DNA of 64,000 nt. Origin: Escherichia coli (GTDB taxonomy: Bacteria > Pseudomonadota > Gammaproteobacteria > Enterobacterales > Enterobacteriaceae). The stretch lies in the NCBI RefSeq assembly GCF_044324785.1, contig NZ_CP172127.1; one strand, written 5' to 3'. This document shows positions 9,041-9,565 of the stretch, piece by piece. The position numbers and the translations under genes are program-made. Every line of letters begins with the position of its first letter. The first letter of the stretch is position 1. The notes beneath the pieces were generated by a model. That model saw only the letters and a list, made by a program, of their open reading frames with translations. It was not told the origin of the DNA and did no database searches.

Positions 9041-9565
9041 ATGAAGTTATGGCCTGTGTTGACTGGCATTGCACTCTCTTTCACTCTTATAGCATGTAAG
9101 GCCCCGACACCACCTAAAGGTGTGCAGCCGATTACAAATTTTGACGCCAACCGCTACCTCGGAAAATGGTATGAAATAGCTCGCCTCGAGAACCGGTTCG
9201 AACGTGGTCTGGAACAGGTCAGCGCTACTTATGGAAAACGGAACGACGGAGGGATTCGTGTACTTAACCGTGGATACGATCCAACGAAAAATAAATGGAG
9301 CGAGAGCGAAGGTAAAGCATACTTTACTGGAGATACTAAAACTGCAGCGTTGAAGGTTTCGTTTTTTGGCCCCTTCTATGGTGGCTATAATGTAATCAAA
9401 CTGGATGATGAGTATAAGTATGCTCTTGTCAGTGGCCCGAACAGAGAATACCTATGGATTCTGGCAAGGACCCCAACTATTCCAGATAAAGTAAAAGCAG
9501 ACTATGTGCGAACCGCTCAAAAGTTGGGATTCAATGTCAATGAATTATTATGGGTTAAACAATAA
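9041..9565 (+). CDS. Outer-membrane lipocalin, Blc paralog (lipoprotein)
   Basis: 174 aa; lipobox LIAC; motifs NFDANRYLGKWYEIARLENRFERGLE and KVSFFGPFYGGYNVIKLDDEY match remembered E. coli Blc. Confidence 0.75.
   Translation: MKLWPVLTGIALSFTLIACKAPTPPKGVQPITNFDANRYLGKWYEIARLENRFERGLEQVSATYGKRNDGGIRVLNRGYDPTKNKWSESEGKAYFTGDTKTAALKVSFFGPFYGGYNVIKLDDEYKYALVSGPNREYLWILARTPTIPDKVKADYVRTAQKLGFNVNELLWVKQ

Follow-up and report, generated by a model that had tools for sequence, protein, structure and literature searches.

Lipocalin genes have been described in lambdoid phages before: of 19 lambda phages from the infant gut, more than half were reported to carry 'blc, a bacterial lipocalin' as a moron, in a study that also counted many membrane proteins among lambda morons (Mathieu et al. 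2020, PMC6969025). GenBank phage records likewise carry the annotation 'Lipocalin Blc', and we found no experiments on the prophage lipocalin in the literature. As for the Blc of K-12 itself, its ligand and the sigma-S dependence of its gene were reportedly described by Bishop in 1995 and by Campanacci in 2004 and 2006.

A second line of earlier work concerns RudS, a tRNA 4-thiouridine desulfidase, of which a phage version exists as well: overexpression of RudS_vir from phage 1H12 lowered the level of s4U in tRNA (PMC11417400). According to the same study, RudS genes often lie in light-responsive operons under MerR regulators, the light inducibility of these operons having been inferred by its authors, and E. 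coli is without RudS (PMC11417400). The lipocalin is mentioned neither in that paper nor in its supplement. Published work counts RudS operons among the responses to light or near-UV stress.

Here, we analyzed a lipocalin gene in a 64-kb stretch of DNA, to which, at its full length, we refer as the window. The blc moron is already published; what is new is its assignment to a second Blc lineage, together with the conclusion, drawn from sequence comparison, that the lipocalin and RudS make up one captured cassette. As a result of the scan, this gene is a published moron that was correctly annotated and does not count as a discovery.

Prophage setting of the lipocalin gene

The window is E. coli chromosome, with the argU/fimZ (DLP12) site occupied by a lambdoid prophage. 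In strain N-01, which is 97.5–98.3% identical to it from window position 24954 onwards, intD is followed by argU, fimZ, and the sfm genes. The late operon of the prophage runs on the minus strand, and the lipocalin gene lies antisense to it, between Q and the lysis genes (Table 1). As the first-pass annotation had stated, the lipocalin gene is therefore on the opposite strand to the late operon: it is encoded on the plus strand and Q, RudS, essD, rrrD, and rzpD are all encoded on the minus strand.

Table 1. Features of the lipocalin locus and its surroundings (positions are those of the window)
Feature	Position	Strand	Remarks
iss/bor homolog	5124-5414	+	In the same window
essD, rrrD, rzpD	6619-5452	-	Lysis genes; late operon
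Variable cargo cassette, 3.1 kb	6631..9738		Holds pR'/tR' region, lipocalin, RudS, AraC; boundaries from blastn against K-12 DLP12
AraC-type HTH gene	6808..7546	-	Pseudogene; GC 31.5%
RudS	7889..8848	-	319 aa; TudS desulfidase + DUF1722, annotated 'YbgA family'; Cys12, Cys44, Cys110 present
Divergent intergenic region, RudS/lipocalin	8849..9040		192 bp; aligned with chromosomal relatives and promoter-scanned
AATATAGTATGAAAGTT	8954-8970		Aligned with the AATAT-N7-ATATT palindrome of relatives; one half degenerate
Promoter-like site, leftward	9017-8990	-	Consensus scan
CATACT, putative lipocalin -10	9003-9008		Aligned with a conserved box of chromosomal relatives
Shine-Dalgarno AGGA	9031..9034	+	6 nt 5' of ATG; aligned with conserved AAAGGAG in chromosomal relatives
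Lipocalin CDS	9041..9565	+	174 aa plus stop; type-2 Blc-family lipoprotein, outer-membrane location predicted
Signal peptide with lipobox L16-I17-A18-C19	9041..9097	+	Mature lipocalin from Cys19; +2 = Lys
Intrinsic terminator	9591..9622	-	Hairpin 9622-9599: 9-bp stem, 5 G-C pairs, then T-run
Candidate pR'-like late promoter region	9665..9749	-	Just downstream of, and overlapping, the Q end
Extended -10 TGtTAGAAT	9673-9665	-	Late-promoter candidate
TTGCTG-17-TAACAT	9708-9680	-	Late-promoter candidate
Promoter scan match	9749-9720	-	Late-promoter candidate
Antiterminator Q	9721..10113	-	Pfam Phage_antitermQ; 87.5% identical to K-12 QuuD over 120 aa
intD	24328-25488		At the DLP12 site; followed in N-01 by argU, fimZ, and the sfm genes

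In blastn, homology to K-12 DLP12 ends at window position 6630 and starts again at 9739, and since it is absent in between, we refer to the intervening segment as a variable cassette. The same slot in K-12 DLP12, between quuD and essD, is filled by nmpC, which is interrupted by IS5. Its position in this Q-to-lysis slot, the presence of nmpC there instead in K-12, and its occurrence in 21% of E. coli genomes all agree with the first-pass description of the lipocalin gene as a prophage moron. The gene is not, however, a lone moron, for it shares the 3.1-kb cassette with RudS and an AraC-like gene.

This cassette is found well beyond the window. The gene order Q, lipocalin (on the plus strand), RudS, HTH, and holin is repeated in six independent contexts besides the window's own prophage, namely, in strain BEC1-S17, in a different prophage with a contractile tail, in strains N-01 and SA53-3, in the induced infant-gut phage 1H12, in phage IdasGreatGrand, and in a heavily decayed prophage remnant in E. 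coli HS; in strain CREC-591 the order is kept with IS1 in the HTH slot, i.e., in place of the AraC-like gene. The AraC-like frame spans 243 aa and is intact in N-01, is split in the window by two 1-bp deletions in A-runs, and is frameshifted in BEC1-S17. This neighbor is decaying. GC content is 44.2% for the lipocalin gene, 43.5% for RudS, 48.1% for Q, and 49.3% for the whole window, compared with the low value for the AraC gene given in Table 1.

Searches of functional collections returned little for the three cargo genes. No defense-system match was obtained when the lipocalin, RudS, and AraC proteins were run through PADLOC, and the PHROG families that were matched, 2809 (lipocalin), 3275, and 1450, are all without an assigned function. 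An Rfam search of window positions 6000-10500 at E<=1 gave only subthreshold chance matches, the best of which was the terminator hairpin.

Family and lineage of the lipocalin

Translation from the ATG start codon gives a protein with the N terminus MKLWPVLTGIALSFTLIAC, in which we read by eye a basic n-region, then a hydrophobic core that leads up to the lipobox L-I-A-C. The protein matches Pfam Lipocalin_2 (PF08212) at E=7e-44 and the NCBIfam model NF007786, 'outer membrane lipoprotein Blc', at full length, scoring 316 bits where the curated cut-off is 267 (residues 1-174, 176 profile positions), and it matches the solved Blc structures 3MBT, 1QWD, and 2ACO at E about 1e-68. Its assignment to the Blc family is far above chance. 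A gap-free alignment with K-12 Blc has 104 of 174 residues identical (60%); Cys19 is common to both proteins, the lipobox of K-12 being VVAC, and the lipocalin signature G-x-W-[YF]-E-I-A-[RK] is present as GKWYEIAR at residues 41-48 (GTWYEIAR in K-12 Blc). The +2 residue of a lipoprotein decides its membrane destination under the Lol sorting rule. Since this residue is Lys and not Asp in the window lipocalin, the rule predicts an outer-membrane location. These matches uphold the first-pass reading of a lipoprotein with lipobox LIAC that is clearly related to Blc but diverged from it, and an identity of 60% to K-12 Blc also bears out that the gene is not a simple blc duplicate.

The further claim that the gene is a diverged paralog of chromosomal blc had to be given up, because proteins of other genera are much closer to it. 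A database search with the window lipocalin found proteins of Cedecea and of metagenomes at 80–82% identity, followed by those of Scandinavium, Serratia rubidaea, Pantoea, Klebsiella, and Lelliottia at 74–78%. We also scanned species-representative genomes for relatives and sorted these by marker-gene mapping, which separated two tiers. Relatives in the first tier are 55–62% identical to the window lipocalin and have the synteny frdD-(ampC)-blc-gdx, like E. coli blc, while those in the second tier are 72–82% identical and occupy loci outside this synteny. Overall, the second type of Blc ("type-2"), represented in Enterobacter, Leclercia, Buttiauxella, Kosakonia, and Cedecea, is 72–85% identical to the window lipocalin, compared to 60% for K-12 Blc, and the closest chromosomal relatives reach 79–85%. 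Buttiauxella agrestis and Kosakonia pseudosacchari each carry one Blc of each type.

The same division was seen in a neighbor-joining tree with 100 bootstraps, where the window lipocalin and that of phage 1H12 fell inside the type-2 clade with a support of 79, and E. coli Blc fell in the other clade, 9 of whose 12 members were marker-checked as frdD-(ampC)-blc-gdx. Supports inside the type-2 clade are only 16–54, and given this poor resolution we do not name a donor genus. None of frdD, ampC, and gdx was found near the window lipocalin. At the DNA level, a blastn search of E. coli genomes with the lipocalin gene, at settings for distant matches, did not pick up core blc, the DNA being too diverged; it recovered mainly prophage copies and, among the matches listed, plasmid-borne lipocalin genes that are 67% and 74% identical. 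Together, identity, tree, and synteny indicate that the window lipocalin belongs to a separate Blc lineage from other Enterobacterales and is not a diverged copy of E. coli blc.

Its distribution differs accordingly from that of the host gene. Of 5426 complete E. coli genomes, 5424 have the core blc gene and 1145 (21%) have the prophage lipocalin, which makes the prophage gene an additional, accessory lipocalin.

Partnership with RudS and retention of the cassette

On chromosomes, the type-2 lipocalin gene often has characteristic neighbors. In 12 of 24 type-2 chromosomal loci it stands divergent from either a MerR/RudS-type or a cfa-like-cluster arrangement, the loci of the closest relatives among them. 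The first arrangement consists of a MerR-family regulator, usually followed by a transthyretin-like gene and the gene for a 319-aa TudS+DUF1722 protein, which is RudS. The second, seen in Cedecea, is a cluster of SnoaL, SDR, amine-oxidase, DUF1365, cfa-synthase-like, and DUF2878 genes; this SnoaL/cfa-like cluster also occurs in the soil MAG L019 (partial) and in Klebsiella sp. BIGb0407 (without the MerR regulator). In Kluyvera genomosp. 1, the RudS gene and the lipocalin gene adjoin each other and are divergent, as in the prophage, and the remaining type-2 loci (Pantoea, Kosakonia sacchari, and others) have a different neighborhood. The MerR regulator of the type-2 loci is 37–42% identical to both MlrA and BluR of K-12 and is hence a third member of the same subfamily.

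The prophage has retained part of this arrangement. RudS of the window is encoded divergently, 192 bp from the lipocalin start, and is 73% identical to RudS of the chromosomal loci and 93% identical to RudS_vir of phage 1H12, with the three cluster cysteines kept. By tblastn, neither the MerR regulator nor the transthyretin-like protein is encoded in the 64-kb window. Across the 5426 complete E. coli genomes, RudS was found in 1135 and the lipocalin in 1145, in near-matching identity bands. These comparisons indicate that the lipocalin and RudS are one captured cassette, from which the MerR regulator is missing. We also considered whether the AraC-like gene had belonged to the ancestral block on the chromosome and rejected this, since it has no homolog in any of the type-2 loci and its GC, at 31.5%, is very different.

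Such tight linkage raises the question of which gene selection has acted upon. RudS is the partner with a demonstrated activity, and it is co-oriented with the late operon, so the lipocalin might be a hitchhiker, with selection on RudS or on the whole cassette and no benefit of its own. The pattern of substitutions makes this improbable. Among six prophage and phage alleles, dN/dS of the lipocalin gene is 0.06–0.24 at a dS of up to 0.2 (RudS, 0.10–0.19), the alleles differ by up to 21–22 synonymous changes, and the lipocalin frame is intact in all six while the neighboring AraC gene decays; the cassette has been kept even in the heavily degraded remnant of E. coli HS. These values argue that the lipocalin has been kept functional by purifying selection since its capture. 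Between the prophage lipocalin and its chromosomal relatives, synonymous sites are saturated, and GC is 44% (GC3 41%) in the former versus 56–59% (GC3 62–74%) in the latter. Capture is therefore either old or was from an unsampled donor with lower GC.

Expression, proposed role, and comparison with known systems

We scanned the intergenic region and the end of Q for signals that could govern the lipocalin gene. No consensus sigma-70 promoter was found by scan on the plus strand in 8849-9040. In the alignment with chromosomal relatives, their conserved box CTACACTT, which we take to resemble a sigma-S-type -10 element, corresponds to CATACT, the putative -10 element of the lipocalin. On the other strand, the sole intrinsic terminator found lies about 100 nt 3' of the Q stop codon, past several promoter-like elements. 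In lambdoid phages, tR' follows pR', downstream of Q, and because the terminator here is placed between Q/pR' and the lipocalin 3' end, we refer to it as tR'-like; the promoter elements upstream of it are candidates for a pR'-like assignment on the basis of their motifs and position. The hairpin has a T-run for the minus strand only, so that the lipocalin gene has no clear terminator of its own.

The reading that we favor, and hold to be slightly better than an even bet, is that of an accessory, prophage-borne Blc lipocalin, a xenolog captured with RudS, which binds lipids for envelope protection in the lysogen. A phage lineage would have captured the lipocalin and RudS long ago from a type-2 locus of an Enterobacter-like member of the Enterobacterales, with loss of the regulator. 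In the lysogen, a weak promoter of its own, possibly of the sigma-S type, would drive the lipocalin gene, and the tR'-like terminator would shield it from the constitutive late promoter: this terminator precedes the lipocalin 3' end, and late-promoter transcription should therefore stop short. The product would be lipidated at Cys19, carried to the outer membrane by Lol transport, and face the periplasm, where, like E. coli Blc, it may bind lysophospholipids, fatty acids, or lipids that have been damaged, and so would help to maintain the envelope in stationary phase or under (photo-)oxidative stress. Upon induction, Q-modified RNA polymerase would pass the terminator and run antisense across the lipocalin gene, which would be silenced, and the same Q-dependent late transcript would then carry RudS, the AraC gene, and the lysis genes in sense orientation.

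With considerable doubt, we also entertain a more specific possibility, namely, that the lipocalin and RudS form a phage-borne module for survival in sunlight (near-UV and photo-oxidative stress). RudS would strip photoreactive s4U from tRNA, and the type-2 lipocalin would handle photo-damaged lipids or lyso-lipids. Loss of the MerR regulator would have rewired the pair such that the lipocalin is on in the lysogen and RudS comes on with late transcription after UV induction. If this is true, lysogeny would give E. coli, which is without RudS and without type-2 Blc, a trait useful outside the gut. The link to light stress comes from RudS and its regulators in other genera and not from the lipocalin.

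Alternatively, the lipocalin might sequester toxic compounds that are hydrophobic (antibiotics, components of bile, or lipids of the host, for example) and thereby make the lysogen more tolerant in the gut. Many hydrophobic ligands are bound by lipocalins, lambda phages from the infant gut often carry the gene, and antibiotic capture has been reported for proteins called 'bacterial lipocalins' (PMC6291622). The genomic neighborhood of the type-2 loci points elsewhere, and we rate sequestration as unlikely, to about the same degree as hitchhiking. The antibiotic-capturing 'bacterial lipocalins' are, moreover, presumably YceI-family and not Blc-family proteins.

The known receptor-blocking lipoproteins have small folds unrelated to that of the lipocalin, and Blc faces the periplasm. 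Both points count against a role in blocking or altering phage adsorption, such as Cor or Llp have in superinfection exclusion; an outer-membrane factor that changes adsorption had been raised in the first-pass annotation. Such a role would suit a predicted outer-membrane lipoprotein encoded by a prophage, given that many lambda morons are membrane proteins (PMC6969025), but we found nothing that points there: PADLOC gave no match, PHROG 2809 is a family without function, and the nearest relatives are lipocalins of the housekeeping type, encoded at chromosomal stress loci. We consider this role very unlikely. Even less probable is a part in lytic growth, e.g., in envelope remodeling at lysis; the lipocalin gene does adjoin the lysis cassette, but it is absent altogether from related prophages, and because the Q-dependent late transcript runs antisense across it, late transcription should oppose it rather than drive it. 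Lastly, an origin as a simple duplicate, with host blc copied into the prophage and drifting there, would account for the shared family, the near-equal length, and the position of Cys19, but it is refuted by identity (60% to K-12 Blc versus 72–85% to type-2 lipocalins of other genera, with core blc invisible to blastn), by synteny (frdD-ampC-gdx absent, RudS placed as in chromosomal type-2 loci), and by the tree.

For work on this gene, the favored reading of an envelope-protecting lipocalin captured together with RudS has practical consequences. The lipocalin is common, being carried by about one E. coli genome in five, and treating it as diverged host blc would mislead experiments. The comparative evidence argues for studying it jointly with RudS, as a stress cassette captured from another genus. 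The relevant conditions would be stationary phase, oxidative stress, and UVA or blue light, which a generic membrane-stress screen might miss.

Several known systems bear comparison with the locus. The LPS translocon includes LptY/YedD, an outer-membrane lipoprotein built as a lipocalin-like 8-stranded barrel, which shows that proteins of this kind can be accessory subunits of envelope machines (PMC12644819). It serves here only as an analogy for another way of acting, and a sequence relationship is not expected. A 54%-identical lipocalin is encoded near the lysis genes of an unrelated Morganella phage; phage carriage of lipocalins is thus not unique to this cassette. With regard to position, nmpC of K-12 DLP12 is an outer-membrane protein gene that is antisense to the late operon and sits in exactly the same slot as the lipocalin gene, and bor/iss of lambdoid phages, likewise an outer-membrane protein gene, also runs against the late operon and is found within or beside the stretch from Q to the lysis genes in the same prophage family. 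The folds of their products, the NmpC porin and the small Bor lipoprotein, are unrelated to the lipocalin.

Among lipocalins, E. coli Blc (b4149; 1QWD, 2ACO, 3MBT) shares with the window protein the family NF007786, the length class, Cys19, and the GxWYEIAR signature, but it belongs to the other lineage, has the neighborhood frdD-ampC-blc-gdx instead of that of RudS, and is core rather than accessory. The type-2 chromosomal loci share with the prophage the divergent RudS arrangement and partly conserved intergenic boxes, whereas in the prophage the MerR regulator and the transthyretin-like gene are missing and the lipocalin gene has a far lower GC. Finally, gp65 of phage 1H12, annotated 'Lipocalin Blc', is the same gene: its product has 97% amino-acid identity to the window lipocalin, from which it differs by five substitutions (A36T, R73S, T99N, K100T, and K150N), and the order Q, lipocalin, RudS, HTH, and holin is shared. 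In contrast to 1H12, the window copy resides in a resident prophage at the DLP12 site, next to an AraC neighbor that is frameshifted.

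Outer-membrane cargo between Q and the holin gene

The slot that the lipocalin–RudS–AraC cassette occupies in the window (6631-9738) is exactly that of the porin gene nmpC in K-12 DLP12. Judged from the sequences compared, the stretch between Q and the holin gene is a place where outer-membrane cargo is swapped. Directly past the lysis genes lies an iss/bor homolog, which likewise encodes an outer-membrane lipoprotein and runs antisense to the late operon, making it the second such gene. Separately, in E. coli HS (1669173-1676697), the Q–lipocalin–RudS–HTH–holin cassette is nearly the sole survivor of a much-eroded Qin-like remnant, with IS1 and pseudogenes on its flanks.

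Genes accompanying the lipocalin, and the K-12 counterpart of the cassette
Feature	Coordinates	Strand	Remarks
nmpC (porin), K-12 DLP12	3530-5826 (K-12 DLP12 locus)	antisense to late operon	IS5-interrupted; coordinates are those of the slot, the counterpart of window 6631-9738
iss/bor homolog	5124-5414	+	91% identical to BorD
AraC-type HTH gene, PHROG 1450	6808-7546	-	pseudogene; 31.5% GC
RudS, "YbgA family" (TudS desulfidase + DUF1722)	7889-8848	-	neighbour of the lipocalin
ybcM (AraC family, 265 aa)	11803-12600	-	nin region

RudS, the AraC-type gene and other accessory genes

The window RudS shares 93% identity with RudS_vir of the infant-gut Escherichia phage 1H12, which was shown to reduce tRNA 4-thiouridine; RudS is absent from E. 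coli itself (PMC11417400). Since the gene has the same orientation as the late operon, RudS is probably produced after prophage induction.

The AraC-type HTH gene is a pseudogene in the window because two single-base deletions in A-runs disrupt it. Among strains with a comparable cassette, N-01 has it intact (243 aa), BEC1-S17 carries a frameshifted version, and in CREC-591 IS1 stands in its place. Homology to strain N-01 places ybcL, ybcK and emrE in the nin region as well, and together with ybcM these give the window prophage several more accessory genes.

The upstream palindrome and related lipocalins

When the MerR–lipocalin intergenic regions of chromosomal relatives (L009, L021, L038 and others) were aligned, an AATAT-N7-ATATT palindrome was found to be conserved ~70-50 nt before the lipocalin start, in columns 110-130 of the alignment. 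Its prophage counterpart, at 8954-8970, has one degenerate half. We regard the palindrome as a candidate for an operator, or for an element of a divergent promoter.

Morganella phage IME1369_01, which is temperate and unrelated to the window prophage, carries its own Blc-like lipoprotein gene (4965-5480; 54% identity) between its lysis and terminase genes, which suggests that phages acquired lipocalins independently. Among the blastn matches listed, lipocalin genes on E. coli plasmids showed 67% nucleotide identity over query positions 62-456, and two E. coli plasmids gave a 74%-identical match to query positions 1-329 only. The 67% group may, we guess, represent a Citrobacter-derived blc travelling with blaCMY-2.

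In Cedecea lapagei (97-5883), the type-2 lipocalin (of the second Blc lineage) lies opposite a MerR regulator, behind which come SnoaL, SDR, amine-oxidase, DUF1365, cfa-synthase-like and DUF2878 genes. We take this SnoaL-to-DUF2878 set to resemble the clusters for furan or modified fatty acids that belong to singlet-oxygen regulons, a likeness that would fit a lipid ligand for the lipocalin.
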